Position numbers and translations under genes: made by a program. Positions 42,149 to 59,484 of a DNA stretch of 64,000 nucleotides are shown here, in pieces. The notes beneath the pieces are model-generated. The model saw only the letters and a program-made list of their open reading frames with translations, made no database searches and was not told the origin of the DNA. This stretch comes from Deltaproteobacteria bacterium (GTDB lineage Bacteria; Myxococcota; JACRCW01). Positions within the stretch are counted from its first letter, which is position 1. Each line of letters begins with the position of its first letter. The stretch covers positions 1 through 64,000 of the forward strand of contig JACRCW010000076.1 in assembly GCA_016218805.1 (NCBI GenBank). Reading direction: 5' to 3'.

Positions 42149-42176
42149 AGCGTTGATCCGGGCACAGGGGACACGA

Positions 42177-42911
42177 ATGGCGACGAAGAAGAAGACAGGC
42201 AAGGCGCGCACCACCGCCGCGAAGTCCAAGTCCGCGCGGAAGCCCGCGGCATCCAGCAAGCGCGCCACGCCGAAGAAGAAGGCTGCGCCGAAGAAGAAGG
42301 CTGCGCCGAAGAAGAAGGCTGCGCCGAAGAAGAAGGCTGCACCGAAGAAGAAGGCTGCACCGAAGAAGGTGCCCGCGCCAACGAAGAAGGCTGCGCCCGT
42401 CGTTGCCATCAAGGCCAAGGTGGCCCCGGACCGCGAGCGCACGCCAGTGAAGGATCCGGTGAAAGCGCTGGCCGATGCGGCCATCCGGGCCGTGCAGCAA
42501 CGCGTGGCCAGCACCCGTCCAAAGCCGGCGAGCGCGCCCAGGCCCTCCGCGCCCCCTCCTGCGCCGGCGCCGCGTCCCACGCCGCCGCCCGCGTCAGAAC
42601 GCCGCGAACACCTGCGGGTTCCCTATGGAGCCTGGGTGAACGTGGTGCGCGCGGGCCGGCAGGAATTCTGCCTTGCCCGGGACATCTCCATGGGCGGGTT
42701 GTTCCTTAAGGCCAGTCCGCCGCCCGCCCTCGGTGAACCGGTGCAACTGCTGCTCCTCATTGAGAACGAGTCCGAACCGCTGATGCTGGGTGGCATTGTT
42801 GTCCGCCGCTCCGAGGGCGAGGGCGGCTTTGGCGTCCGCTTCAGCAACCTGGACGCGCGCTCCGCCGCACGCCTGCGCGACCTGGTGGCGGACACCGCGG
42901 CCGACGTCTGA
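42177..42911 (+). CDS. Histone-H1-like Lys/Ala repeat region fused to a C-terminal PilZ domain
   Basis: (PKKKAA)5 repeats; PilZ motifs RREHLR and DISMGG, plus GFGVRF. Confidence 0.85.
   Translation: MATKKKTGKARTTAAKSKSARKPAASSKRATPKKKAAPKKKAAPKKKAAPKKKAAPKKKAAPKKVPAPTKKAAPVVAIKAKVAPDRERTPVKDPVKALADAAIRAVQQRVASTRPKPASAPRPSAPPPAPAPRPTPPPASERREHLRVPYGAWVNVVRAGRQEFCLARDISMGGLFLKASPPPALGEPVQLLLLIENESEPLMLGGIVVRRSEGEGGFGVRFSNLDARSAARLRDLVADTAADV
42270..42368 (+). repeat. 18-bp coding tandem repeat CCGAAGAAGAAGGCTGC[G/A], 5.5 copies
   Basis: Read directly from the sequence. Confidence 0.95.
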
Positions 42912-46086: not shown

Positions 46087-47436
46087 ATGAAGCTGGCCCG
46101 TTCCACCGTTGTGGCGCCCGTGCCCGGGAGCGAAAAGCTGTTGATGGTGCAGCCGCTCACCGGGCAGGTGGCGCTGTGGGAAGGGGAAGACGCGCGCCGG
46201 GTGGCCGCGGTGGACCGCGGCGCGGAGTTGCCGGCCTGTCTGCCGCTGGTGGACATGCGGGAAGCCGGGTTTGCGGTGTCCTCGGACGAGGAGGAAGCGG
46301 ACCTGCGGTCGGCCGCGTACGCGGAGTACGTGGAGGAGGTGCTGCGCACGCCCACGCAGCTCATTGTGGTGCCGAGCTTTGGCTGCAACCTCAAGTGCAC
46401 CTACTGCTACCAGGAAGTGTTTGACCCGACAGGCGGCGGGCTTATTGCGGCGGACACCATTGACGCGCTGTTCCGCTACGTGGACCGCTTCCACGGCGAG
46501 GATGACCCGCGCCCGTACCTGACGCTGTTTGGCGGCGAGCCGTTGCGGGACACGCCGACACACAAGGACCGCGTGGAGCGCATCCTGGCGCGCGCGCGTG
46601 CGCGCGGCATTGGCGTGGCGGTGGTGACCAATGGGTACGACCTGGAAGCGTACGTGCCGCTGCTCTCCGCCGGCGGCATCCGCGAGGTGCAGGTAACGCT
46701 GGATGGCCCGGAGCCGGTGCAGGACCTGCGGCGTCCGCACGCCAGCGGGGCGGGGACGTTCCAGCGCGCGGAACGCGGCGTGGATCAACTGTTGAGGAAC
46801 GGCGTGCCGGTGAACCTGCGCGTGGTGGCGGACCGGGACAACCTCCCGTCACTGCCGGCGCTGGCGCGTGTGGCGCAGGAGCACGGGTGGCTGGACCTGC
46901 CGGGTAGCCTGTTCAAGACGCAGGTGGGTAGGAATTACGAACTGTTCGGCTGCGCGAGCGGCCAGCGCCGCGACCAGCTGTATGACCGCGTGGAGCTGTG
47001 GGCGGATTACGTGGCGCTGGCGGAGAAGGACCCGGTGCTGCGGAAGTTTCATTCGCCGCGGTTCCACGGCATCCGGCACCTTGCGGACACGGGGGAGTTC
47101 CCGGTGGCCAACTTTGACGCGTGTCCCGCCGCCAAGAAGGAATGGGCGTTTGCGCCGGATGGCGGGTTGTATGGGTGCACCGCCACGGTGGGGAATCCGG
47201 CGTATCGCCTCGGCACGTACGCGCCGGAGGTTGTGCGGGATGAAACGGCCATTGGGCGGTGGCGGGAGCGCAGCGTGTTCACCATTGAGAAATGCAAGGA
47301 CTGCTCGGTGGCGGCGGTGTGCGGCGGCGGATGCGGCGCGATTGCGGCCAACCGCACGGGGGACATCCGCGGCGCGGATTGTCGTCCGGTGGCGGAGTTG
47401 TTTGGCATTGGGGCAAGGTTCTACGGGTTGGGCTGA
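46087..47436 (+). CDS. Radical SAM/SPASM protein, peptide-maturase-like
   Basis: CNLKCTYC and FGGEP; SPASM C...YGC...CKDC....VCGGGC...C; ~90-aa N-terminal extension. Confidence 0.9.
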   Translation: MKLARSTVVAPVPGSEKLLMVQPLTGQVALWEGEDARRVAAVDRGAELPACLPLVDMREAGFAVSSDEEEADLRSAAYAEYVEEVLRTPTQLIVVPSFGCNLKCTYCYQEVFDPTGGGLIAADTIDALFRYVDRFHGEDDPRPYLTLFGGEPLRDTPTHKDRVERILARARARGIGVAVVTNGYDLEAYVPLLSAGGIREVQVTLDGPEPVQDLRRPHASGAGTFQRAERGVDQLLRNGVPVNLRVVADRDNLPSLPALARVAQEHGWLDLPGSLFKTQVGRNYELFGCASGQRRDQLYDRVELWADYVALAEKDPVLRKFHSPRFHGIRHLADTGEFPVANFDACPAAKKEWAFAPDGGLYGCTATVGNPAYRLGTYAPEVVRDETAIGRWRERSVFTIEKCKDCSVAAVCGGGCGAIAANRTGDIRGADCRPVAELFGIGARFYGLG

Positions 47437-47910
47437 CGCAGGGACTCCCGCTTTGCCACGGGCTGCTGCGGACGCCTGCCTTGCCCAAGGGGTGGCGGCG
47501 GCGTTGGCGGCCACGCAACCCGTCAACGTGGCTCGGCAGGAGCCTCACCCTCCCGATGCGCCATTGGGTGCGGAACAGTCAGTGACGCTCGCGCATGTAC
47601 TTCTGCGCAGCCATCCGCGGCGCGGATTGTCTTCCGGTGGCGGAGTTGTTTGGCATTGGTTGGCGCAAGAAGCCACCTGGGAGGGCGAGGCTCCTGCCGA
47701 GCCACGTCACGCGTTCCTCCAACGGGCATTCCGTGCTCGCAAGAGCGCCCGCGTCAGGACGCCTGGCCTTGCCCGAGTGGAGGCTGGTCGAGGGTCGTCG
47801 TCGGCGGCCACGCAACCCGTCAACGTGGCTCGGCAGGAGCCTCGCCCTCCCGATGCGCCATTGGGTGCGGAACGGTCAGTGACGCTCGCGCACGTACTTC
47901 TGCGCAGCCA
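47364..47910. repeat. Tandem duplication of the convergent intergenic region plus both gene ends, containing three REP copies
   Basis: 47364-47411 matches 47612-47659; 47506-47613 matches 47803-47910 (108 bp, 3 mismatches); REPs at 47530, 47679 (inverted) and 47827. Confidence 0.9.
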
Positions 47911-48805
47911 GCGCGGCGATGGTGCCGTCCGCCACCGCGGTGGTGATCTGCCGGAACTTCTTGGCGCGCACGTCGCCCGCCACGTACAGGCCCGGCACCG
48001 GCGTGCTCATGTCGTCGGCCGTTTCCACGTAGCCCCACTTGTCCAGCGGCACCACGCCCTTGAGCAGCTCCGTCTGCGGCACCATGCCGATGAAGATGAA
48101 CACACCGTCCGTGCTGAGCATCCTGCGCTCGTGGGTCTTCACGTTCTCCACCACCAGGGTCTCCAACGTCTTCTCGCCGTGGAACCCGCGCGGCTCATGG
48201 CTCCACAACACCTTGATCTTCGGGTTGTGCAGCGCCTCCTCCGCGGTGGATGCCTCTGCCTGGAACTGGTCAAACTGGTGCACAATCGTCACGGTCCTCG
48301 CAAACTGCGTGAGGAACAGCGATTCCTCGACGGCCGAGTTCCCACCACCGATGACGTGGATGTCCTTGCCCTCAAAGTACGCGCCGTCGCACGTGGCGCA
48401 GTACGAGATGCCGGCCCCGCGGAAGCGGGCCTCACCCTCCAGGCCCAGGTGACGCGGCCGCGCGCCGGTGGCCACAATTGCGACGGGAGCCGTAACGGTG
48501 TCCTCGTCGTCCAGGACAAACCGCTTGACGTCCGCGCGCAGGTCCATGTCCGTGATTTCCACGGCGCGGCGGACCTTGGTGCCAAAGCGCTCCGCCTGCT
48601 TGGCAAACGCCGCCGCCAATTCCGTTCCTTTGATGTCCTCAGGAAAGCCCGGGTAGTTGGACACCTTGTGGGTGGTCTTCACCTGCCCACCGGGCACGCT
48701 CTCATCCAGCACCAGCGTGCGCAGCCGCGCGCGCGCCGCGTAGATGGCGGCGGCCAGGCCCGCGGGTCCGCCTCCCACAATCACAACGTCATGCGTGGTT
48801 TCCAT
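47876..48805 (-). CDS. trxB: Thioredoxin-disulfide reductase
   Basis: GGGPAGL, NYPGF, CATCDG, GGGNSAVEE and AGDVR..QITTAVADG motifs. Confidence 0.95.
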   Translation of the reverse strand: METTHDVVIVGGGPAGLAAAIYAARARLRTLVLDESVPGGQVKTTHKVSNYPGFPEDIKGTELAAAFAKQAERFGTKVRRAVEITDMDLRADVKRFVLDDEDTVTAPVAIVATGARPRHLGLEGEARFRGAGISYCATCDGAYFEGKDIHVIGGGNSAVEESLFLTQFARTVTIVHQFDQFQAEASTAEEALHNPKIKVLWSHEPRGFHGEKTLETLVVENVKTHERRMLSTDGVFIFIGMVPQTELLKGVVPLDKWGYVETADDMSTPVPGLYVAGDVRAKKFRQITTAVADGTIAALAAQKYVRERH

Positions 48806-48817
48806 GTTGCCTCCCCG

Positions 48818-49150
48818 TCACGCAAGAACCGCTTCAATGGCTGCCTTCAGCTCGCTGCGCTTGATGTCACCGCTGAAGCGTGACCCGACCTCCTTGCCGC
48901 CCTTGAAGAACAGGACGGTGGGGCTGCCGCTGACGCCCAGCTTGGTGGCCAGCTCGCGGCTCCCCTGTCGGAAAATCTTCAGGAAACGCGCGCGCCCCGC
49001 GTACTGCTCCGCCAGCGCGTCGTACTTGGGCGCCAGCGCTTCGCACGGGGCGCACTCCGTGGAGAAGAAATCCAACAGCACGGGCTGCGGCGAGGCGAGC
49101 ACCTCGGATTCAAACTGGGCCTGGTCGATGGTCTTGACGTGGTCACTCAT
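48818..49150 (-). CDS. Thioredoxin family protein (CAPC active site)
   Basis: VLLDFFSTECAPC...PTVLFFKGG. Confidence 0.88.
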   Translation of the reverse strand: MSDHVKTIDQAQFESEVLASPQPVLLDFFSTECAPCEALAPKYDALAEQYAGRARFLKIFRQGSRELATKLGVSGSPTVLFFKGGKEVGSRFSGDIKRSELKAAIEAVLA

Positions 49151-49174
49151 GGGTCTTCCTCAAGGCGGATGGGG

Positions 49175-49211
49175 CCCCCGGGAGGCGCGCCACCGCGGCG
49201 CGCTCCGGGGG
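49175..49211. other. GC-rich stem-loop between the peptide gene and thioredoxin
   Basis: CCCCCGGGAGGCGCGCC-accgc-GGCGCGCTCCGGGGG; no clear U-tract. Confidence 0.6.
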
Positions 49212-49225
49212 TTTCGGCCACATCT

Positions 49226-49330
49226 TCAGTCGTGGCAGCCGGACACGATGCGCGACGACTTCGCGCAGCACTGCGCCGTCTTCTCCGGACCGGCGCTACA
49301 ACAGGCTTTCTTCCTGGTCAGCATCTTCAC
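49226..49330 (-). CDS. 34-aa Cys-rich peptide MKMLTRKKACCSAGPEKTAQCCAKSSRIVSGCHD (candidate RiPP precursor or metalloid-binding peptide)
   Basis: GTG start overlaps the methyltransferase stop (GTGA); AGGAGG RBS 9 nt upstream; five Cys. Alternative ATG start at 49324. Confidence 0.72.
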   Translation of the reverse strand: MKMLTRKKACCSAGPEKTAQCCAKSSRIVSGCHD

Positions 49331-50013
49331 GTGCTTCCACCTCCTTCCCCGACAGGGGGACTCTGCTTGAAGCCCCGCAGCGTGAGGCTTCGCACCACCA
49401 CGCCGCCTTTCTCGTACGGCTCGGAACGCTCCACCACGTCCACGCGCGCAAACCCCGCGCGGGAGATGGCGCCCAGGTACTCGGCCTCTGGGACGGCGCC
49501 GCCGTAGCAGGCCGCCCACGCGGCGGGGTCCTCGCGCACCGCCTGGGGCAACTCCTGTTCGGCAATCACGTCAGACACCACAAAGCGGCCACCCGGGCGC
49601 AGCACGCGGTGGACCTCGCGGTAGACGGCTTCCTTGTCGCGCGCGTGGTTGATGGTGCAGTTGGAGATGACCACGTCCGCCGCGGCGTCAGGCAGGTCCA
49701 GGGACGCCAGGTCACTGCGCACAAAGCGCACGTTGCGCTGGTAGGGCGGCACCGCAGCGCGCGCGGCGGCCAGCATGGCGTCCGTGCGGTCCACGCCAAT
49801 GGCGGCACCCTTGTCCCCAACGCGATCCGCCGCGCGGATGACGTCACGCCCGCGGCCGCAACCCAGGTCCACCAGCACCTCGCCGCGCTGGGGCGCGGAA
49901 ATGTCAAATGCACTCCCGCAGGACAGCGAACCGGCGCAGCAGGAGGTGGCCAGCGCGCCGTAGCGGGCTTCCACGGCGTCCTCGAGCGTTCTGGGGGCGG
50001 GACAACAGGACAT
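49327..50013 (-). CDS. SAM-dependent methyltransferase, arsenite methyltransferase (ArsM)-like
   Basis: LSCG, VDLGCGRG, VISNCTIN, RVLRPGG and WAACYGGA; these Cys positions match the ArsM/AS3MT pattern. Two extra N-terminal CC pairs. Confidence 0.8.
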   Translation of the reverse strand: MSCCPAPRTLEDAVEARYGALATSCCAGSLSCGSAFDISAPQRGEVLVDLGCGRGRDVIRAADRVGDKGAAIGVDRTDAMLAAARAAVPPYQRNVRFVRSDLASLDLPDAAADVVISNCTINHARDKEAVYREVHRVLRPGGRFVVSDVIAEQELPQAVREDPAAWAACYGGAVPEAEYLGAISRAGFARVDVVERSEPYEKGGVVVRSLTLRGFKQSPPVGEGGGST

Positions 50014-50025
50014 GATGGCTCTCCA

Positions 50026-50067
50026 GGGAATCCGCCGTGTGGGAGCCCCCGGCGGCGCGGAGGGTTC
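50026..50067 (-). promoter_or_regulatory. Upstream motif shared with the radical SAM gene
   Basis: Minus strand reads GAACCCTCCGCGCCGCCGGGGGCTCCCACACGGCGGATTCCC. Confidence 0.55.
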
Positions 50068-50156
50068 ACGCCTCCCGGGTACGCCCCGGTGTCGACGGGA
50101 ACAACCTCACGCCCGGGAAGGCCGGGCTGGATCTGCGCCTGCACCGGGCGGTGCGC

Positions 50157-51362
50157 TCACTCGTACCGGAGCGCCTCCACCGGATCGACGAGCGCGGCGT
50201 TGCGCGCGGGCAGCACGCCACTGAGCACGCCCACCAGCGCGGAGAAACCCATGGCCACGGCCACGATCCAGGCGGAGAGCTCCACCGGGAGGTCAGGCAC
50301 CACGTTACGCGCGATGGCGATGATGCCCGCGCCCAGCCCCAGCCCGACGAGCCCGCCCACCAGGCTGATGACCACCGCCTCAACGAGGAACTGCAGCAGG
50401 ATGTCCGTGCGCGTGGCGCCCACGGCGCGCCGGATGCCGATCTCCCGCGTGCGCTCCTTCACGCTCACCAGCATGATGTTCATGATGCCAATGCCACCCA
50501 CCACGAGCGAGATGGAGGCGATGGCGAGGATCACCAGCGTCATGGTGCGCAGCAGGTCGTTGACGGTCTCCAGCAGGTCATCCTGGCTGCGGATGGTGAA
50601 GTCCTCCTGGAAGTTGTGACGCGCGGAAAGCACCTCGCGGATGTCGTCCATGGCCGCGGCGGTGCTGCGGCGGTCACGGCTGCGGCACAGCACCTGCGTG
50701 ACGCCGTCCAGTTGGAACAGGTCCATGGCCGTCTGGGCGGGGACGTACGCAATGTCATCCCAGTCAAACCCGAACGTCTGCCCCTTGGGCGCCATCACAC
50801 CGACGATGCGGAAGGGCACGTCCGTGATCTTGACTGTGCGCCCCAGCGGGTTCTCCTCGCCGAACAACTCGCGCACGATGGTGGTGCCCACCACCACGAC
50901 ATGGCGGCCCGCCAGCGCGTCCTCGTCATCAAAGAAGCGGCCGGACTGCACGTGCAGGTTGCGCATGTCCGGGTACATGGCGCTGGTGCCGAACACCGCG
51001 ACATCCCGCCGGCGATCCAGGTAGCGCAACGTCCCGCCGCCGAAGACGATGGGGCTGACCGCGTCGAGCGTGCGCGCGCGCCGCTCGATGGCGCGGGCGT
51101 CCTCCAGCGTGATCTTGCGCGGGTTGTTCAGCGGCGGCGGACCCATGCCCTTGCGCTCGGTCTTGCCGGGAATGACCTCAATGAGGCTGCTGCCCAGCCC
51201 GGAGAACGCCTCGGCCAGGTAGGTGCGCACGCCGTCACCCAGGCCGACGAGCAGGATGATGCTCAGCACACCGATGATCACGCCCAGTGTGGTGAGGAAC
51301 CCGCGCACCGGGTTGGCGCGCAGCGCGCCGAACGCCGCGACCACGTGGTCCAGCGTGTTCAT
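50157..51362 (-). CDS. MacB/FtsX-type ABC permease
   Basis: GGIGIMNIMLVSVKERTREIGIRRAVGA; C-terminal PVEALRYE. Confidence 0.93.
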   Translation of the reverse strand: MNTLDHVVAAFGALRANPVRGFLTTLGVIIGVLSIILLVGLGDGVRTYLAEAFSGLGSSLIEVIPGKTERKGMGPPPLNNPRKITLEDARAIERRARTLDAVSPIVFGGGTLRYLDRRRDVAVFGTSAMYPDMRNLHVQSGRFFDDEDALAGRHVVVVGTTIVRELFGEENPLGRTVKITDVPFRIVGVMAPKGQTFGFDWDDIAYVPAQTAMDLFQLDGVTQVLCRSRDRRSTAAAMDDIREVLSARHNFQEDFTIRSQDDLLETVNDLLRTMTLVILAIASISLVVGGIGIMNIMLVSVKERTREIGIRRAVGATRTDILLQFLVEAVVISLVGGLVGLGLGAGIIAIARNVVPDLPVELSAWIVAVAMGFSALVGVLSGVLPARNAALVDPVEALRYE

Positions 51363-52078
51363 CCGGCGGCCTCCGCGCGCGGCACCGGCCCGTCCTCCAC
51401 GACGGCGCCGTCCACCAATGACACGCGGCGGCGGGTGTACGCGGCCACCTCCGGGTCATGCGTGACCACCACAATGGTGGACCCCGCGGCGTGGAGTTCA
51501 TCAAACAGCGTGATGATCTCGCGGCCGGTGCGCCGGTCCAGCGCGCCGGTGGGTTCGTCCGCCAGCAGCAGCGCGGGCTGCGTGACCAGCGCGCGCGCAA
51601 TGGCCACGCGCTGACGCTGCCCGCCGGAGAGTTCATTGGGGCGGTGCGTGACGCGGTTGGCCAGGCCCACGCGGTCCAGGGACTGCAGCGCCAGGCGGCG
51701 GCGTTCACGCGCGGACAGGCCGCGGTAGCGCAGTGGCAGCTCCACGTTCTCCAGCGCGTTGGCGCGCGACAGCAGGTTGAAGTTCTGGAAGATGAAACCG
51801 ATCTTGCGGTTGCGCACGTTGGCGAGACGGTGGTCCGGCAGCGCGGAGGCCTCTTCACCGTCCAGCGCGTAGGTGCCCGCGGACGGGCGGTCCAGGCAGC
51901 CAATGATGTTCATCAGCGTGCTCTTGCCACTGCCGGACGGCCCAATGATGGCCACGTACTCGCCGCGCAGCACCACGAGGTCCACCCCGGCCAGTGCCAC
52001 CACCCGGCTGTCCGCCTGGCCGTACTCCTTGCGGATGCCGCGCATGGCGATGACGGGCGGTGGTGCCGGTGCGCTCAT
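51359..52078 (-). CDS. ABC ATP-binding protein (MacB/LolD-type)
   Basis: GPSGSGKST, LSGGQRQRVAIARAL and DEPTGALD motifs. Confidence 0.95.
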   Translation of the reverse strand: MSAPAPPPVIAMRGIRKEYGQADSRVVALAGVDLVVLRGEYVAIIGPSGSGKSTLMNIIGCLDRPSAGTYALDGEEASALPDHRLANVRNRKIGFIFQNFNLLSRANALENVELPLRYRGLSARERRRLALQSLDRVGLANRVTHRPNELSGGQRQRVAIARALVTQPALLLADEPTGALDRRTGREIITLFDELHAAGSTIVVVTHDPEVAAYTRRRVSLVDGAVVEDGPVPRAEAAG

Positions 52079-53313
52079 GGCCGGGCCGCGGCGTCCGGCG
52101 TGGACGTGTCCGGTGCCGCCGGCCGGGGTGGGCGGCCGTCCTGCAGGCCCGCCAGGCCGCCCGGGAGCGTGGCCGCGCGTGCCAGGGGCACGGGGCGCGC
52201 GCGCACGCCCTCGCGAATGGCCGGGTCGTTGGGCGCATGCACCACGCGGTCCTGCGGGTCCACGCCGGACAGGACCTCGGTGACGTCGTCGTTGTTCGCG
52301 CCGGTGCGGATCTTCCGGCGGCGCAGCGTACCCGCGCCCTGCGCGTCCACGTCCGCCACCACCATCACGGTGCGCTCCACGCCGCGCCCCTGCACGGACA
52401 TGGTGGGGAGGATGGTGGCGCCGGATACCACCCGCTCCACCACCGCCACGTTGGCCGCGGCCCCCACGCGCAACGGCGGTGCGCCCTGGAGTTCCACCTC
52501 AATGCGCAGCATGCGCGAGAGGCGCTCGTCCCGGCCAATGGCGGGCGCCACCGCGCGCACCACGCCGGGCAGTTCCTCTGTCCGCAGCGAGTCAAACGTG
52601 ACCAGCACCGGCTGGCCCACGCGGACGCGCGGCGCATCCACCTCGTCAATGGGCGCGGTCACGTACACGTGCGTGTCATCCACCAGGTCAAACAGCGGAA
52701 CGCCCGGCGTCACCTGCGTCCCCACGGCGACAAACACGTCCTGCAGCACGCCACCAAACGGTGCGCGCAGCTCCATGCGCGCCAGCGCCAGCCGCGCCTG
52801 CGTGATGGCCGCTTCCGCCTGCCGGACCTGCGCCTCGGCCAGGCGCACGCCGTCACCCGCGGCGGCGGTCTCCACTTCCAGGCGTTCCAGTTCCACCTTG
52901 GGCGCACCGCCGCGCTCTACCAGTTGGGCCGTGCGCTCCTGCATCCGCCGGGCGCCGTCCTGGCGCGTCCGCGCGGCGGCCACGCCGGCACGGGCCACCT
53001 CCACGGCCGCTTCCGCCTGCGCCAGGCGCGCGCGCGCATCCCGCGGGTCCAACGCCAGCACCAGGTCCCCGCGCGCCACGCGGTCACCCCGGCGGCGCAG
53101 CACGCGCTCCACGGTGCCCGGCAGTTCGCCGCGGACCAGCGTGCGCTGGTCAGGCGTCACTTCACCCGCGCTGCTGCCGTTGATGACAATCCGGACGTCA
53201 CCCTTCTCCAGCGCAATCACCGTGACGTCCACCGGAGGGCGCGGACGCGTGAGCCACCACGCCGGGACACCGACGAGGCCCACCAGCACCAGCAGCGTCA
53301 GCACGCGCTTCAT
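52075..53313 (-). CDS. Efflux periplasmic adaptor (MacA-like)
   Basis: N-terminal TM anchor, lipoyl half-motifs, coiled-coil hairpin, 'LRAPFGG' and 'IDEVD'. Confidence 0.88.
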   Translation of the reverse strand: MKRVLTLLVLVGLVGVPAWWLTRPRPPVDVTVIALEKGDVRIVINGSSAGEVTPDQRTLVRGELPGTVERVLRRRGDRVARGDLVLALDPRDARARLAQAEAAVEVARAGVAAARTRQDGARRMQERTAQLVERGGAPKVELERLEVETAAAGDGVRLAEAQVRQAEAAITQARLALARMELRAPFGGVLQDVFVAVGTQVTPGVPLFDLVDDTHVYVTAPIDEVDAPRVRVGQPVLVTFDSLRTEELPGVVRAVAPAIGRDERLSRMLRIEVELQGAPPLRVGAAANVAVVERVVSGATILPTMSVQGRGVERTVMVVADVDAQGAGTLRRRKIRTGANNDDVTEVLSGVDPQDRVVHAPNDPAIREGVRARPVPLARAATLPGGLAGLQDGRPPRPAAPDTSTPDAAARP

Positions 53314-53434
53314 CCACGCTCCGGGGAGGAGCATCATGTTTGAGGGGCGCGTCGTCCAGTAATCCTTTGTCCGAGTTGACGGACGAGCCCCGGTGGCCGG
53401 CCCGCGTTACAGCTTCATGGTGCAGCACCCGTCA

Positions 53435-56400
53435 TCAGCAATGCGCGTTCAGCCACCGCTGAGCGCGGTCCACCACGTCCCTCACCCGTGCCGCGTCCCA
53501 CGTCCCCGGACCCGGCAGGCTCCACTCCAGTCTGAACGGGGACGCGGCGCCTTCCACCACCGCCAGGAAGCGGGCGAGCCACGCCGCCGTCTCCACCCCA
53601 CCGCGTAGCGCGGCGCCGGCACCGAGCAGCAGGTCAACGTGGCGGGCCGCGGACTGGACCTCAGCCGCGTCAACGACGAGGGGCTCCTCCAGCAGGCGCA
53701 GCGCCTGGGCCACCTGGCCCGCGGCGGCGGCCCGGTCCGCGTCACGCAGTTGGCAGCGGAACCGCAGGAGTAGGGGTGAGGTGGGTGTGGGGTCATCCGG
53801 CAGGGGCGCCAGCAGCAGGCCCAGCGGCTCCAGGTCACACGCCAGGGTGGCCGGCGCGGCGGCGGGGGCGGCGGCCAGCAGGGCGCGCGCCTCGTCAAGG
53901 CGCCCGGTAAGCGCCAGCGCGTGGGCCAGCACGTGGACGTCGTGGCAGGAGCGCTGCCCCGGCGGAATGTCCCCGGCCAGCGCGAGGGCGGCGGTGGTCT
54001 CGCCACGTCGCAGCAGACGTTCCACACGCATGGGGCGGGTGGCGGCATACGCGCGGACCGCGTCAATGCGGCCGAGCAGGGGCTCCACGTCGTCGTCAGC
54101 CAGCGCGTACCATGCAATGGCCTCCAGCCGCTCCGGTGTTGCGGACCACCGGTCTTCCAACCGGCGGCGGGTGGCCGCGTCAGCACGCGCCCAGTCACGC
54201 AGCTCCGCCAGGTCCGTGTTGGCGGGCCGCCCGCACGTGAACGGATCCTTGATGGCGACGACGGTGGAACGCCACACGGCCCCGCGCGCGCGTAGCGCGG
54301 GCAGGTGCGCAGCCGACGCGTGCAACTCCACGCCCTGGTCCGTGAAGGCGGCCACCGCAACACGCGTTCCGTCGTTATGGCCAACCAGGCACGCGCGCCC
54401 GGCAAACACGAGCCGATCACGCACCTTGAGGTCTCCGTCGGTGAGCGTGAGCGACGTGCGGGTTTCCGGACCCCACCGGACCACGAGGTCCCCGGATTCG
54501 GGCAGGGCGCACGCGGCAACCTGGCCGATGTGCGTGTCCGCCGCGTCGCCCAGGACGGTGCCGGTGCGCGACCGTCCGCCGTGCGCGCGGACGATCCGCA
54601 GTTCGCGCGGGCGGGCGTTGTAGGCGTCCATCTCCACCAGGGCGGATGGCCCGCCGTCCGGCCGGGCCACCACCGCTTCCACAAACGCGGACGGCGCGGA
54701 CCATGCGGCAACCTCCGCCCCGTCGGCGGCGAGCACCCGCGTGACCCCGCCTTCGCTGCCGGCCGGCTCCAGCACCCGGCCGCGCGCCCGGCTGGCAAGC
54801 CGCACCGGCAGGCGGTTCATCTTCATGCGCCGCACCACCTTGAGCGTCCGGCTGTCCACGATGGTGGTCACCGTGTCCGGCCCCGCGCTGTCGCACCGCC
54901 ACGTGCAGCCGGCGTCCCCCAGGAAGAGCACGCGGTCCAGGCTCTCGCCGCTGGGCGGGGCGGGAAGCAGATCCCACGCAAGCACGTCCCACGTGGTGGC
55001 GGAGAGCACCAGCACGTGGCCCGTACGGGAGCACAGCCACAGGGACCTGCCGGATGCGGCCAGGGCCAGGAGCGTGAAACCGGGCGGCAGCCGCAGGTGT
55101 GCGCGCGCGCGGACCGTCCCGTCCGCTGCGTCCAGGCACCACACAAACAGGTGCGCGCCCCAGGCGCACGCGAAATACGCCCGCCCATCGTCGTCCACGC
55201 ACGCGTTCACGGAGTCCGGCTCCAGGTGCTCCGGGAAGAACGGCATCCGCGCCGCCGGGTCCGCGACCGCTTCGGTGGCCGTGCGCGCGTGGCCGCGGAC
55301 GGCGCGGGTGACCTGCTCCGCCAGCGCGGCCGGCACCCGCGCATCGTTCTCCCGCCGGATCTCGCCCAGCGCGGCAAGCGCGTCGTACGCCCGCCCCTCG
55401 GCGAGCGCCTCGCGCACGAGCCCCAGGCGGCGCGCCGCGTTCCGCTCGGCCTCCAGGGCACCCGTCCGCGCGCTCAGTTCGTCCCGGAGGGCCGGCGTGA
55501 CGTCGTGGGACGGCGCGGTGCGCAGCGCGTCCAGCGCGGCTTCATGGTCACCCCGCGCGGCCAGTGCGGCGGCGGCGTCCAGCGCGGCCTGCACCGCGCG
55601 GCCGTGGAGCGCGGCCACGGCGTCGTCCACGGATGCGGTCACCTGGCGGCCCGCCCGGAACGACCGGGCCACCTCCAGATGTGGTGCCAGCGCGGTCTGC
55701 GCTTCCTGCGCTCGGTCCTCCGCGAGCAGGCGGCGCGCCTCGGCCAGGGCCCGCAGCGCGGGGACCGCTGCTGCACGCCGTGATCCCGCGCGCGGGAACT
55801 CGGCCAGCCACGCAATCTCGTCGGACCCGGCCTGCCGGCCCACCTCAGTCAGCAGCTCGTCATCGTCCAGCGCGGCGAGCGCGACCAGTCCGTCCGCGGG
55901 AGCGGCCGCGCGCCATGCGCGCACCAGCCGCGCCACGGTGTCCGCGCGCTCCTTCGCCTGCAGGGCCGCGGCCACGCGCGCACGCAGCGTCTCCAGCGCG
56001 GGATCCACCACGTGGTCGCGGGTGGCATCACGCAGCAGCGCGGCGGCGGCGACGGGATCGCGCTCCAACAGTTGTTCCACGGCGGGCGCCACCAGCAACG
56101 CACGCGCATGCGCGTCCGCCAGGCGCCGCCGGACCGTTCGCGCATCCACCTCAGCCAACACGCCGCGGGCCACGCGCGAATCCGGCCACCGCGCCAGTAA
56201 CGACGTCGCGGCCGCGCGCGCCGCGTCCTCAGGGCCGTCATCCATCCGGCGCTGCAGGTCCGCTTCCAGCGGTTCCCGCTCGCGGCGGTCGTCGTCCGCC
56301 AGGCGTTTCTCCAGCGCCAACAGGTCCGCGTGCACGGCACCACGGCGCCGTGCCTCGGCGAGCTGCGCGCGCGCGTCCGCGTGGTTGCCCGCCGCCAGCG

Positions 56401-57139
56401 CGCGTTCCACCAGGCGCGCGTGCACCTCTCCCGCGCGCGGATGCTCCAGGTCACGCAACCCGCTACGTGCCCGTTCAGCGTCCCCGCTGCGCGCCGCGGC
56501 CAGTGCGAGCAGCAGGCGGACGTCCGCGTCCGCCGCCGCCACTGCCGCGACGGGGAGCGCCAGCGCATCCGCGTCCGCGGCCAACGTGTCCACGAGCAAT
56601 TCCAGCAGCGCCCGCAGCCGCGCCGGCGAAGGCGCGGCCGCCCAGGCGCGGCGCAGGCAGTCGCGGGCGGTGTCGTAGTCGTACGCGGCCAGCGCGTTCT
56701 CAGCCGCGCGGGTGAGCGAGGCCGGGTCCTCCGCGGGTACCGCATCCGCCGCCGGTGCGGTCTCCACGACGGCGCGCGGCGGGGCGGCCACCGGCACCGC
56801 CGCGGGTCCCGCATCCAGATGGAAGCGCGCCCATGAGCGCGATTCGTCATCCAGTGCGTCCAGCACCGCGTGGCACAACCCGCGCCCGGTGGGAACATGC
56901 CGCAGCAGCACGGCGCCCTCATCAAGCACGGGTTCCAGCACGTCCCGGTGATCCCGGATGAGCACGCCAATGAGACGCGACTTGAGCTCGTAGCGGCGCC
57001 GCGCCTCGGGCTCGGGCAGGCCGCGCTCCGTCGGGTTGACCGCGCGGATGACCGCGGCCAACTCCTCAATCGGCGGTCGCACCCGCCCGCGCAGGATGGC
57101 GTCGACCGTCCGGTCCGCCTTCGGGTCTTTGCGCGGCAT
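53435..57139 (-). CDS. Large hypothetical protein with TPR-like helical regions and a central beta-rich region
   Basis: 1234-aa ORF co-oriented with its neighbours; Ala/Arg-rich helical repeats. Confidence 0.7.
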   Translation of the reverse strand: MPRKDPKADRTVDAILRGRVRPPIEELAAVIRAVNPTERGLPEPEARRRYELKSRLIGVLIRDHRDVLEPVLDEGAVLLRHVPTGRGLCHAVLDALDDESRSWARFHLDAGPAAVPVAAPPRAVVETAPAADAVPAEDPASLTRAAENALAAYDYDTARDCLRRAWAAAPSPARLRALLELLVDTLAADADALALPVAAVAAADADVRLLLALAAARSGDAERARSGLRDLEHPRAGEVHARLVERALAAGNHADARAQLAEARRRGAVHADLLALEKRLADDDRREREPLEADLQRRMDDGPEDAARAAATSLLARWPDSRVARGVLAEVDARTVRRRLADAHARALLVAPAVEQLLERDPVAAAALLRDATRDHVVDPALETLRARVAAALQAKERADTVARLVRAWRAAAPADGLVALAALDDDELLTEVGRQAGSDEIAWLAEFPRAGSRRAAAVPALRALAEARRLLAEDRAQEAQTALAPHLEVARSFRAGRQVTASVDDAVAALHGRAVQAALDAAAALAARGDHEAALDALRTAPSHDVTPALRDELSARTGALEAERNAARRLGLVREALAEGRAYDALAALGEIRRENDARVPAALAEQVTRAVRGHARTATEAVADPAARMPFFPEHLEPDSVNACVDDDGRAYFACAWGAHLFVWCLDAADGTVRARAHLRLPPGFTLLALAASGRSLWLCSRTGHVLVLSATTWDVLAWDLLPAPPSGESLDRVLFLGDAGCTWRCDSAGPDTVTTIVDSRTLKVVRRMKMNRLPVRLASRARGRVLEPAGSEGGVTRVLAADGAEVAAWSAPSAFVEAVVARPDGGPSALVEMDAYNARPRELRIVRAHGGRSRTGTVLGDAADTHIGQVAACALPESGDLVVRWGPETRTSLTLTDGDLKVRDRLVFAGRACLVGHNDGTRVAVAAFTDQGVELHASAAHLPALRARGAVWRSTVVAIKDPFTCGRPANTDLAELRDWARADAATRRRLEDRWSATPERLEAIAWYALADDDVEPLLGRIDAVRAYAATRPMRVERLLRRGETTAALALAGDIPPGQRSCHDVHVLAHALALTGRLDEARALLAAAPAAAPATLACDLEPLGLLLAPLPDDPTPTSPLLLRFRCQLRDADRAAAAGQVAQALRLLEEPLVVDAAEVQSAARHVDLLLGAGAALRGGVETAAWLARFLAVVEGAASPFRLEWSLPGPGTWDAARVRDVVDRAQRWLNAHC

Positions 57140-57154
57140 CGCGGGCCTCGGTGG

Positions 57155-59089
57155 TCAGGACGGGGGCGGCACGTCGTCCAGCCGGTAGATGACAAACGAC
57201 GGCGTCCGGTACAGCTCCGGCAGGTTCCACGGCGGGTGCCGCGTGCGGCGGATGGCCACGTGCGCGCCGAACTCGCGGCCCAGGCGGCGCGCGTCGTCGT
57301 CGGTGAGGCGTTCGTCCAGCGGGTCCAGCCGCGAGAAGTGCGTGAAGCCCACAATGGGCGCCGGCTCCCACCCGTACAGGCGCAGCTTGCGCTGGAACGT
57401 CTCCACGTACGCCGGGTGGTGGAACGCGGCGTCCCCCTCCTGGAAGTCCACCGCCGGAATCTGGTTGGAGAACACCCGCAGCCCCATCTGCGTCAGCGGC
57501 ACCATCACCACGTCGCCGCGCGGCAGCGTGCGCGCACACCATTCCTGCACGTCGCGCCATTCGGACATGGCGCCCTTGCGCGGCCCGTAGGTCATCACCA
57601 CGCCGCGCGCACCCAGGTGCAGCGCCGCCAGCAGACATGCCGCCTGGAACAGCATCCGCCGCGTGAAGCCGCGGTGCGGGCCCTCCGCCCGCCGGATCCA
57701 CGCCGACAGCACCGCCACCGCCGCAAACAGACCGAACAGACCCTCAATGAAGTAGAAGCCCCGCGGTGCCGCCTCTGCGCTGGCCACCGGCAGTTCGCGC
57801 ACGCCTGACAGAGTCAGCGCTCCGGGGATGGCCACCGCCAACGCCGTCATCAATGCCACCATCCGCCCGCCCGGCTGGCCGCCGCGGTAACGCAGCACCA
57901 TCCACAGCGCCGGGGCCAGCGTCAGCCAGTACGCGGGGCGGTACAGCGCCGCCACGCCCAGGCCCATCAGCATCATCACGCCGGTGGCCGCCGCCATGCG
58001 CGCATCCGGGAGGTCCGGCCGGTCCACCGCACGCACCAACTGCACGCATGCGCGCGCCAGGAACGGCGCCCCGGCCAGCGCCATGATCCAACTGAGGCGC
58101 ATGAGGTGCAGACGCAGGATGAACGGGTGCGGGTGAATCTCCACCAGCACGCCGCCCACCATGGCCACCAGGATGGACAGCCACACCATCCGCGCCAGCG
58201 TGCCCGCGTCGGCCACCGGCTGCGTCGGCTGCGCCAGCGCCCACAACGGCCACGCCGTGGCGACGGGGAACAGCAACATCAGCCAGTCCAGCATGCCCCA
58301 GGTGGACGGCCAGAAATGGGACGGGAACCAATCCTTGATGGCCTGCGCGTAGCCTGCCGGCGGCGTGCCGCCCAGCGCGCCCACTTCGCGCATCCACCAC
58401 AGCGTGGGCAGGCTCAACAGCACGGCCACCACGCCGCCCAGGATCACCTGCCCGCGCAGCGCGCGGTCCCGCAGCAATGGCAGCTGCACCAAACCCAACA
58501 CCAGCATCAGGTGCACCGCGTGCATGCCGTGGAAGTTGAACAGCACGCCCAGCACCACCCACGCCGCCACAATGCGCCGCCGCGCCACCAGCAGCAGCGC
58601 CCACAGCGCCATCACCTGCGCCAGCGCGCCATGCGTGAGGTAGATCTCGCTGACAATGTCCCAGCCGAACGTGGTGGACTGCACCGCCAGCACCGCGGCC
58701 GTCCAAAGCGCCGCCACCCCGTCGTCAAACAGCACCATCCCCAACCGCCACCCCAGCCAGCAGGTGGCAAACCGGAACGCGAGAAACAGCGCGAACATCA
58801 GCACCGGCAGCGGCACGTAGCGCGCCGCGTAACCCACCGCGGGGAAGAACGCCGTCGTGTACGTGTTCACCAGGTCGGAGATGAACGGGTCGCGGTCAAA
58901 GGCGTCATCCCCCGCCCAGTGGCGGATGAGCGGGATTTGCAGCCCGTGGTTGATGAACCCCACCAGGTAGCCCTGCGTGAGGATGGAGCCGGCCGTGATG
59001 AGCAGCAGCCACAGGAGGGGGCGCTGCGGCGCGCGGCTCCACAGCGGGATGCGCAACTCGGGCAGCGGTGCCGGTGCGGGCGCGGACAT
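57155..59089 (-). CDS. Polytopic membrane protein (GT-C-like architecture possible)
   Basis: About 14 hydrophobic segments, early 'DPF' loop, soluble C-terminal domain. Confidence 0.7.
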   Translation of the reverse strand: MSAPAPAPLPELRIPLWSRAPQRPLLWLLLITAGSILTQGYLVGFINHGLQIPLIRHWAGDDAFDRDPFISDLVNTYTTAFFPAVGYAARYVPLPVLMFALFLAFRFATCWLGWRLGMVLFDDGVAALWTAAVLAVQSTTFGWDIVSEIYLTHGALAQVMALWALLLVARRRIVAAWVVLGVLFNFHGMHAVHLMLVLGLVQLPLLRDRALRGQVILGGVVAVLLSLPTLWWMREVGALGGTPPAGYAQAIKDWFPSHFWPSTWGMLDWLMLLFPVATAWPLWALAQPTQPVADAGTLARMVWLSILVAMVGGVLVEIHPHPFILRLHLMRLSWIMALAGAPFLARACVQLVRAVDRPDLPDARMAAATGVMMLMGLGVAALYRPAYWLTLAPALWMVLRYRGGQPGGRMVALMTALAVAIPGALTLSGVRELPVASAEAAPRGFYFIEGLFGLFAAVAVLSAWIRRAEGPHRGFTRRMLFQAACLLAALHLGARGVVMTYGPRKGAMSEWRDVQEWCARTLPRGDVVMVPLTQMGLRVFSNQIPAVDFQEGDAAFHHPAYVETFQRKLRLYGWEPAPIVGFTHFSRLDPLDERLTDDDARRLGREFGAHVAIRRTRHPPWNLPELYRTPSFVIYRLDDVPPPS

Positions 59090-59094
59090 GGCGC

Positions 59095-59484
59095 TCAGCC
59101 CCGCCCCATCAACGGGTGGTGCGAAATGGCCACGCGGTTCCCCTCCGGGTCGCGCGCGTACGAGGTGTGGTCCGTGCGGCCCTCCACCGGCGCCCCCGCC
59201 GCCTCCAAGGCCGCCTCCAGGCGCGCGCGCTCCGCCTGGTCCACGCGCACCGCAATGAGAAACGGCCCCGCGCCCACGCCCCACACCCGGTGCGGCGCTT
59301 CGTCCGTGTGCTCCACCATCAGCGCCGCTCCCGCCCCCAGGTCCAGCCACACGCTGCGCAGGCTCCCGTCGTCGCGGAAGTGCCGCTGCTGTTCAGTGAA
59401 CCCCAGCACGTCCCGGTAGAACGCCACCACGCGCTCCACGTCCCGCGCGCCCAGCGCCACGTGGTGCAACACCCGCCCGCTCAT
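59095..59484 (-). CDS. VOC/glyoxalase family protein
   Basis: LHHVAL, FYRDVLG and YARDPEGN motifs. Confidence 0.9.
   Translation of the reverse strand: MSGRVLHHVALGARDVERVVAFYRDVLGFTEQQRHFRDDGSLRSVWLDLGAGAALMVEHTDEAPHRVWGVGAGPFLIAVRVDQAERARLEAALEAAGAPVEGRTDHTSYARDPEGNRVAISHHPLMGRG

Follow-up and report, generated by a model that had tools for sequence, protein, structure and literature searches.

A recurrent cassette joining a small cysteine peptide and a radical SAM/SPASM enzyme to an ArsM-like methyltransferase and a thioredoxin pair

Described systems and the five-gene locus

Several described systems join a radical S-adenosylmethionine (rSAM) enzyme either to a short peptide or to a methyltransferase of the ArsM type. 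CteB (ScfB; structures 5wgg and 5why), the enzyme of the SCIFF peptide, carries a full SPASM domain together with an N-terminal domain resembling the recognition element (RRE) of peptides that ribosomes synthesize and that are post-translationally modified (RiPPs), and binds the substrate Cys at its auxiliary cluster I. The SPASM enzymes PapB, NxxcB and QhpD, maturases of ranthipeptides and of quinohemoprotein amine dehydrogenase (QHNDH), form thioethers from Cys to a carbon of Asp, Asn or Glu, and in the mycofactocin system (MftA/MftB/MftC) an rSAM/SPASM enzyme has as its target the final residues of a short peptide that is conserved and intracellular. When ArsM methylates oxidatively, a disulfide is left behind, which thioredoxin (Trx) and thioredoxin reductase (TrxR) reduce, while plain thiol S-methylation needs no reductant. 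The arsinothricin (ArsL/ArsM) and arsenosugar (ArsS/ArsM) pathways pair an ArsM-type methyltransferase (MT) with an rSAM enzyme that is not known to be a SPASM/RRE peptide maturase or to use a peptide. Here we describe five genes at positions 46087..50013 of a 64,000-nt stretch from a Deltaproteobacteria bacterium (contig JACRCW010000076.1 of assembly GCA_016218805.1; the whole stretch is called the window below), which encode a short Cys peptide, an rSAM/SPASM enzyme, a short ArsM-like MT, a Trx and a TrxR. The same genes recur together in several phyla, and on balance we think that they probably form a conserved, self-contained cassette that makes a small ribosomal Cys peptide and acts on it inside the cell.

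The rSAM gene runs on the plus strand and converges with the four others, which lie on the minus strand in the order MT, peptide, Trx, TrxR. The features of the locus are:

46087..47436, plus strand: putative radical SAM/SPASM peptide maturase, 449 aa (PF04055 71.1 bits; TIGR04085 48.4 bits, cut-off 27)
47876..48805, minus strand: thioredoxin-disulfide reductase, 309 aa, CATC redox motif (TIGR01292 349.7 bits, cut-off 343.45)
48818..49150, minus strand: cassette thioredoxin, 110 aa, active site CAPC (PF00085 76.4 bits)
about 49175..49211, minus strand: G+C-rich hairpin between the peptide and Trx genes (computed fold)
49226..49330, minus strand (coding 49229-49330, stop 49226-49228): precursor peptide MKMLTRKKACCSAGPEKTAQCCAKSSRIVSGCHD, 34 aa plus stop (reading of the open reading frame, orthologues and codon evidence)
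49340..49345, minus strand: AGGAGG ribosome-binding site, 9 nt upstream of the peptide GTG (read in the sequence)
49327..50013, minus strand: short ArsM-like SAM methyltransferase, 228 aa, with Cys25/26, Cys32, Cys119 and Cys169 (NF008823 186.1 bits)

CteB was the nearest solved structure both by sequence (5wgg, E 1.9e-14) and by fold (Foldseek E 3.2e-17, TM 0.67, 476 aligned columns over the full length), followed in fold by anSME, ChlB and SuiB. The cassette enzyme shares with it the full SPASM domain, the RRE-like N-terminal domain and a short Cys peptide that has neither a dedicated protease nor an exporter, and in our model the leader lies on the RRE-like domain and a Cys near an auxiliary cluster, as in CteB. 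However, it scored 70.1 bits against a cut-off of 425 for the CteB family TIGR03974, it has an additional invariant Cys (C289), and its peptide is unrelated to SCIFF, with three conserved Cys and a core at the extreme C-terminus. The cassette is also linked to an ArsM-like MT and to Trx/TrxR, and we know of no SCIFF locus with that linkage. The PapB, NxxcB and QhpD substrates resemble the cassette peptide in having a Cys two residues before Asp or Asn at the modified end, and the alternation of Asp and Asn at the last position of our peptide matches their acceptor residues. The scores were again below the cut-offs (NF047865, 87.7 bits against 340; TIGR03906, 69.2 bits against 453), the cassette peptide has a single C-terminal motif instead of a repeated CxxxD, and a thioether is only proposed for it.

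The remaining systems were alike in fewer respects. Like the ArsL and ArsS pathways, the cassette pairs an rSAM enzyme with an ArsM-type MT, but its enzyme scored 123.4 bits on NF040538 (cut-off 500) and 85.3 bits on NF038099 (cut-off 400). In contrast to mycofactocin (TIGR03962, 56.6 bits with 265 as the cut-off), the cassette's enzyme has a fused RRE in place of a separate one, peptidase and glycosyltransferase are absent, and the core is made of Cys residues and not of Val-Tyr. The MT has the class I SAM fold and aligned Cys residues of ArsM/AS3MT, and Trx and TrxR are encoded alongside; unlike those enzymes it is short, lies outside an ars operon and has a peptide and an rSAM maturase as its partners. 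The best NCBIfam match of the rSAM enzyme, TIGR04463, reached 117.3 bits against a cut-off of 525, and the enzyme thus belongs to no curated family. The cassette is a widespread and conserved variation on the theme of rSAM/SPASM peptide maturases, joined to an ArsM-type MT and a private Trx system. The original prediction did not recognise this combination as a characterised pathway; likewise, we found no Pfam or NCBIfam model for it and no description in a full-text literature search limited to one collection of papers.

The peptide core and its linkage to four enzyme genes

The original prediction had singled out a 34-aa open reading frame (ORF) that a mechanical 97-aa call (49226-49519) contains as its 3' part, with a strong ribosome-binding site and GTGA coupling to the MT. 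We found this ORF at 49229-49330 (minus strand) behind AGGAGG, and its GTG start (49330-49328) overlaps the TGA stop of the MT gene (49329-49327, minus strand), so that the coupling is real. Orthologues begin with MK[S/L/M]L at the same point, which supports the start at GTG 49330. The window peptide is made up of the leader MKML and the core AQCCAKSSRIVSGCHD.

Across orthologues of about 31-45 residues the conserved core reads A-Q-C-C-[A/S]-K-x-S-x4-G-C-H-[D/N]-stop, 16 residues that always stand at the extreme C-terminus, and ahead of it come the MK[S/L/M]L leader and then a linker that is basic and variable. Of the CC/CC/GCHD pattern proposed earlier, the second CC and the GCHD are conserved, whereas the first CC is lineage-specific and missing from most Bacteroidota and Spirochaetota peptides. 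In the loci sampled with an rSAM profile (see below) the core began with AQCCSK in 14 loci, and the last residue was Asn in 7 loci and Asp in 38 loci and the window. When the loci were grouped by this last residue, the rSAM sequences of the two groups were split only by clade markers and a C-terminal extension, and by no active-site column. Among 82 distinct DNA sequences of the core, the Ala before QCC, which was left unconstrained, was kept in 82 of 82 with four codons in use, and the Ser at core position 8 in 81 of 82 with six. As both residues are kept despite varied codons, selection acts on the protein. Such a near-unchanging core in the lineages sampled points to a basic and unexplained piece of anaerobe biochemistry.

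The peptide matched no family of Pfam or NCBIfam at E up to 0.01, and it had no profile match to the ArsD metallochaperone model NF033727. A homologue search with a natural 43-aa orthologue returned only 18 called proteins, all of them "hypothetical" or unnamed; gene callers mostly miss this ORF. We also looked for selenocysteine variants: G-U-H-[D/N] had 0 matches in genome_contigs, and neither C-U nor U-C at the vicinal pair had any in metagenome_contigs. Two matches to fused forms of the peptide, one of them behind a CcdA/DsbD-like N-terminus, were set aside because both look like over-long or frameshifted calls.

The same core occurs beside the same four enzyme genes in several phyla, as a survey of related loci showed. 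Starting from the rSAM enzyme, we collected 54 related loci with flanks of 6 kb on each side; 44 of these were orthologue-grade (36-70% identity), and of these 44, 30 had a peptide with the same core and 28 had all five genes, while the 14 lacking the peptide were mostly short contigs or split gene sets. Starting from the peptide, we searched with a degenerate DNA version of QCCAK-x6-GCHD-stop, which matched at least 120 stretches, and all five genes were present in 58 of the 80 loci that were fetched with flanks. The two sets share some contigs and are not independent. Because the DNA pattern forces the motif, we added an rSAM profile search, which gave at least 585 relatives among at least 600 matched stretches; the best 80 were kept and their upstream DNA was read with the loose expression CC-x6-12-C-x1-4-stop. 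A peptide stood directly upstream of the rSAM gene in 45 of the 46 loci that are not of the Anaeromyxobacter type, and the 46th had no upstream DNA. Co-occurrence of the rSAM gene with MT, Trx and TrxR in other genomes, on which the original prediction had staked its case together with conservation of the peptide, is thus borne out.

Gene order varies among these loci. In the rSAM-derived set we saw MT-PEP-rSAM, Trx-TrxR-MT-PEP-rSAM, PEP-Trx-TrxR-MT-rSAM and the convergent form of the window (PEP, peptide), and in the peptide-derived set MT-PEP-rSAM-Trx-TrxR was the commonest order (45 of 80), with 3 of 80 loci showing the window's MT-PEP-Trx-TrxR and convergent rSAM. By their record titles the carriers are mostly anaerobes and belong to Myxococcota, Spirochaetota, Bacteroidota, Ignavibacteriota, Fibrobacterota, Clostridia (added by the rSAM-profile sample) and one Margulisbacteria metagenome-assembled genome (MAG); cultured, non-pathogenic ones among them are Anaeromyxobacter terrae SG22, A. 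soli SG29, A. oryzisoli SG63, Desulfitobacterium sp. Sab5 and Sinanaerobacter chloroacetimidivorans BAD-6. MAGs that carry the label Anaeromyxobacter or Myxococcales have the copies most similar (65-70%) to that of the window. Within its own genome and 40 relatives, the rSAM enzyme was present at E up to 1e-40 in only 2 of 41 genomes, the own genome and G002, and the latter has a cassette of the Bacteroidota/Spirochaetota type in MT-PEP-rSAM form (rSAM 44% and MT 53% identical). This patchy distribution suggests that the cassette moves as a unit.

Clustering of 1,152 neighbouring ORFs revealed no sixth gene shared across phyla, and no protease, peptidase or exporter that recurs with the cassette, which fits an intracellular product. 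Loci of the Anaeromyxobacter type have accessory genes for a rhodanese (26 loci), DUF5714, DUF6125, a protein resembling glutathione S-transferase (GST), an FAD disulfide oxidoreductase and a second Trx, and those of Bacteroidota have DUF6132, DUF302 and MarR. In eight loci of the Anaeromyxobacter type (L035, L037, L039, L040, L043, L046, L055 and L056) a second, solitary peptide gene was seen about 2-3.5 kb downstream of the rSAM gene.

Predicted chemistry and competing explanations

The convergent rSAM gene had been read as coding for a full SPASM domain behind an N-terminal extension, and its SPASM score and conserved cysteines agree with this. In 68 orthologues the CX3CX2C cysteines C100, C104 and C107 were invariant (68/68), as were C289, C346, C364, C406, C412, C416 and C432, and C403 was kept in at least 90%; we take the spacing of these residues to be that of a seven-Cys SPASM domain. 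In the AlphaFold2 model (predicted local distance difference test, pLDDT, 94.5) residues 8-60 form a beta3-alpha domain of three strands followed by helices. By this fold, by the full-length match to CteB and by the modelled pairing of the leader with strand 26-32, residues ~1-62 are predicted to be an RRE-like leader-binding domain.

We modelled the enzyme together with the peptide, three 4Fe-4S clusters and SAM in 3 runs and with 3 controls. The interface score ipSAE was 0.84 (runs 0.85, 0.83 and 0.84), compared with 0.01 for the best control. Among solved complexes 116 of 157 attain the mark applied to this score, and among mismatched pairs 2 of 215 do, counts that hold only roughly here (own alignments, ligands included). 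The runs agreed in at least 35% of the contacts, with a partner pLDDT of at least 44. In the model, peptide residues 1-6 touch rSAM residues 26-32 (strand), 52-60 (helix) and 332-338, and residues 31-34 (GCHD) touch 279-284, 345-346, 364, 366 and 415-416, next to the invariant strand Q279, G281, R282, N283 and Y284 and to the invariant C346, C364 and C416, presumably ligands of auxiliary cluster I in the usual SPASM assignment. The N-terminal extension, for which co-folding had been proposed as a check, therefore behaves as a peptide-recognition domain in this controlled model.

The MT aligned with CmArsM (4fr0/4kw7) at E 8e-31, with C32, C119 and C169 on C72, C174 and C224, and of 102 cassette MTs, 102, 101 and 102 respectively retain these residues and 99 retain the N-terminal C25/26. 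The description of this enzyme as ArsM-like holds for its As(III)-binding cysteines but not for membership of the NCBI ArsM family. The Trx and TrxR originally seen behind the peptide are both supported by their profile scores. Among 97 cassette Trx active sites, 91 were CPPC, 5 CAPC and 1 CSPC, and CATC was found in 93 of 96 cassette TrxRs. Given that ArsM needs a reductant and plain S-methylation does not, we take MT, Trx and TrxR to form a single functional arm, which may act on a thiol-held lone-pair element or on the peptide's own thiol chemistry.

Taken together, these observations suggest the following scheme for a peptide made and processed inside the cell. The RRE-like domain of the rSAM/SPASM enzyme would bind the MK(S/L/M)L leader of the peptide and thread the invariant C-terminal G-C-H-D/N beside the first auxiliary Fe-S cluster, where the enzyme would most likely install a radical-mediated modification at the C-terminal end. 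Our leading guess is a thioether of the CteB/PapB/QhpD type from Cys32 to a carbon of the terminal Asp or Asn. The short MT, with its full metalloid-binding Cys tetrad, could then run an ArsM-like cycle of methylation and disulfide reduction with the private CxPC Trx and the TrxR, directed at the vicinal Cys pair that remains on the peptide or at a thiophilic ligand on those thiols (an As(III)-like metalloid or a sulfur species). A cassette of this kind would tie radical SAM peptide modification, ArsM-type methylation and Trx reduction into one fixed unit, and if the MT acts on the peptide, this would be RiPP tailoring of a new kind or a thiol cofactor derived from a peptide. These data support the hedged interpretation first offered for the locus, in which a Cys-peptide system would serve either a RiPP pathway with a dedicated reduction arm or metalloid handling with the peptide as substrate or carrier.

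Several points weigh against this scheme. The type of modification, the substrate of the MT and the cellular role are inferred from genes and models and not from observed chemistry. A CteB-peptide complex (5wgg) has already been solved, so that the pass of our binding model may partly be memory of the likeness, and the peptide's own modelled fold is uncertain (pLDDT 44-58). C289, an additional invariant Cys located in an insertion relative to CteB, could occupy the iron site that has to stay open in thioether synthases. The family scores of two partners are low, NF008823 (PRK11873) giving 186.1 bits against a cut-off of 263 for the MT and TIGR01068, the WCGPC equivalog, 68.7 bits against 96.8 for the Trx, which does pass the Pfam thioredoxin fold. 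Linkage is also broken in places: some Myxococcota have split sets (for example L067 and L116, which share a contig but are separated by about 750 kb), and in L052 the rSAM gene stands alone within 6 kb on each side. In addition, a MacB-type exporter adjoins the cassette and leaves room for export in this particular window.

A bolder version of the metalloid idea is a peptide-scaffolded pathway of anaerobes, in which the three peptide thiols would hold As(III) (or Sb, Se or Te), the SPASM enzyme's radical on the peptide would cage the site by a thioether or form a peptide C-As bond, and the mini ArsM with Trx/TrxR would methylate the bound metalloid. We regard this as unlikely but worth keeping in view. 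Were it true, the cassette would yield an organo-metalloid bound to the peptide ("arseno-RiPP") or provide a methylation route that depends on the peptide, and many of the short genes registered as "arsM" in anoxic soils and sediments would belong to a peptide pathway and not to classical detoxification. More generally, should a metalloid be the substrate of the MT, surveys of arsM in paddy soils and sediments would need rereading; Atlas clusters of short cassette-type MTs are automatically named arsenite methyltransferase.

A plainer arsenic or antimony methylation module seems improbable. Here the peptide thiols would carry As(III) to the short ArsM in the manner of ArsD or glutathione, Trx/TrxR would re-reduce the enzyme, and the rSAM enzyme would only mature or pre-organise the carrier. 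The near-complete retention of the Cys tetrad (99-102 of 102 MTs) agrees with such a role, Trx/TrxR is the physiological reductant of ArsM/AS3MT, and the peptide core A-Q-C-C...G-C resembles, as a short motif only, the A-M-C-C-S-T-G-V-C site of ArsD from the same genome; an Atlas cluster automatically named as an ArsD/methyltransferase fusion is a further lead, and only a lead. Yet a canonical arsR-arsD-arsA-acr3-arsC-arsM operon already exists on another contig of this genome (C42, L199:6916-11956), where the ArsA, Acr3, ArsD and ArsM models were passed and ArsM reached 353.7 bits against the cut-off of 263, so that the genome has two ArsM-type genes in different contexts. No ars gene was found beside the cassette among the scanned ORFs of the window, including 20 further ORFs, or as a recurrent neighbour, and arsenic methylation as it is known involves no SPASM peptide maturase.

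The phylogeny of the MTs argues in the same direction. In a tree of 68 rows (52 cassette MTs and 16 non-cassette ArsM-type proteins, root arbitrary), 14 of the 16 non-cassette rows, including the ArsM of the window's genome, formed one supported clade (98/93) without any cassette MT, and the remaining two, L007 and the long-branched L020, fell among the cassette rows. This tree, the short length, the low ArsM score and the separate operon on C42 indicate that the cassette MT is a distinct paralogue and not the detoxifying ArsM. New here are this comparison of cassette MTs with canonical ArsM, the separate ars operon in a carrier, the D/N and A/S core variants and the negative selenocysteine search. 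The relevant listing in PMC13188914 names ArsM-type selenoproteins only, and a portion of PMC11462812 deals with ttrA in Anaeromyxobacter. Two MTs of the cassette type have Cys-rich tails reminiscent of the peptide motifs: that of L007 (G037:C22), which had no peptide or rSAM gene within its 1.5-kb flanks, ends in ...GRKVGCCCCG, and that of L006 (G002:C133) in ...SCGCHGGS.

We likewise give little weight to a peptide-derived redox cofactor or low-molecular-weight thiol comparable to mycofactocin or pyrroloquinoline quinone, whose C-terminus the rSAM enzyme would cross-link, which the MT would methylate and whose disulfide Trx/TrxR would recycle. A near-invariant core that always forms the extreme C-terminus across phyla, the lack of a conserved exporter, the mostly anaerobic carriers and the thiol and sulfur accessory genes (rhodanese, GST-like protein, FAD disulfide oxidoreductase and DUF302) would all suit such a product, but no recurrent peptidase is available to release a small cofactor and the four kept ArsM cysteines of the MT would be left unexplained; the absence of Cys-to-selenocysteine variants from our searches is weak evidence either way. 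A secreted RiPP natural product (an antibiotic or metallophore), tailored by the MT and exported by the adjoining MacB-type pump and HlyD adaptor, is very unlikely: rSAM/SPASM, RRE and a short peptide are typical RiPP architecture and the pump operon is on the same strand, but the ABC genes are neither beside the cassette in its closest relatives (L025-L028) nor recurrent, no leader peptidase is present, and the core is nearly unchanged across at least six phyla whereas natural-product RiPPs are known to diversify theirs.

Neighbouring genes, hairpin and repeats

Directly upstream of the MT gene, on the same, minus strand, is the MacB-type ABC exporter, made up of a permease (50157-51362), an ATPase (51359-52078) and an HlyD/RND-type adaptor (52075-53337); the MT gene starts 143 nt behind this operon. 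Both the exporter and the TetR and acyl-CoA dehydrogenase genes upstream of the rSAM gene were considered as parts of the cassette and rejected, as they have no counterpart in the closest loci. Further away, two large ORFs of 1234 aa and 731 aa at 53435-59350 (minus strand) had no Pfam match at E up to 1e-5. An ORF at about 42170-42911 (plus strand) begins with KKKAAP repeats, as in histone H1, and carries a C-terminal RxxxR ... DxSxGG pattern that we take to be PilZ-like.

The stem-loop noted earlier behind the peptide gene does exist, but it is not statistically remarkable. The 91-nt fold had -39.8 kcal/mol (z -1.87) and was equalled by 5 of 200 shuffles, which is not exceptional for DNA of 70% G+C, and it has no T-run that would make it a terminator; its role is uncertain. 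Scanning of 47300-50300 gave 0 sigma-70 promoter sites and 3 terminator-like sites (1.6 expected), none of them behind the peptide gene.

Finally, the intergenic stretch 47437-47875 between the stops of the rSAM and TrxR genes carries a local duplication. A 115-nt pair (47499-47613 and 47796-47910, 96% identical) takes in the 35 nt at the end of the TrxR gene, and a 48-nt pair (47364-47411 and 47612-47659, 98% identical) duplicates part of the rSAM 3' end, the two kinds of copy abutting at 47612/47613. The same stretch holds three copies of a 29-nt element with 22 matches genome-wide at up to 3 mismatches, compared with 0 for a reversed control, and this dispersal marks it as a repeat like repetitive extragenic palindromes or miniature inverted-repeat transposable elements (REP/MITE-like).

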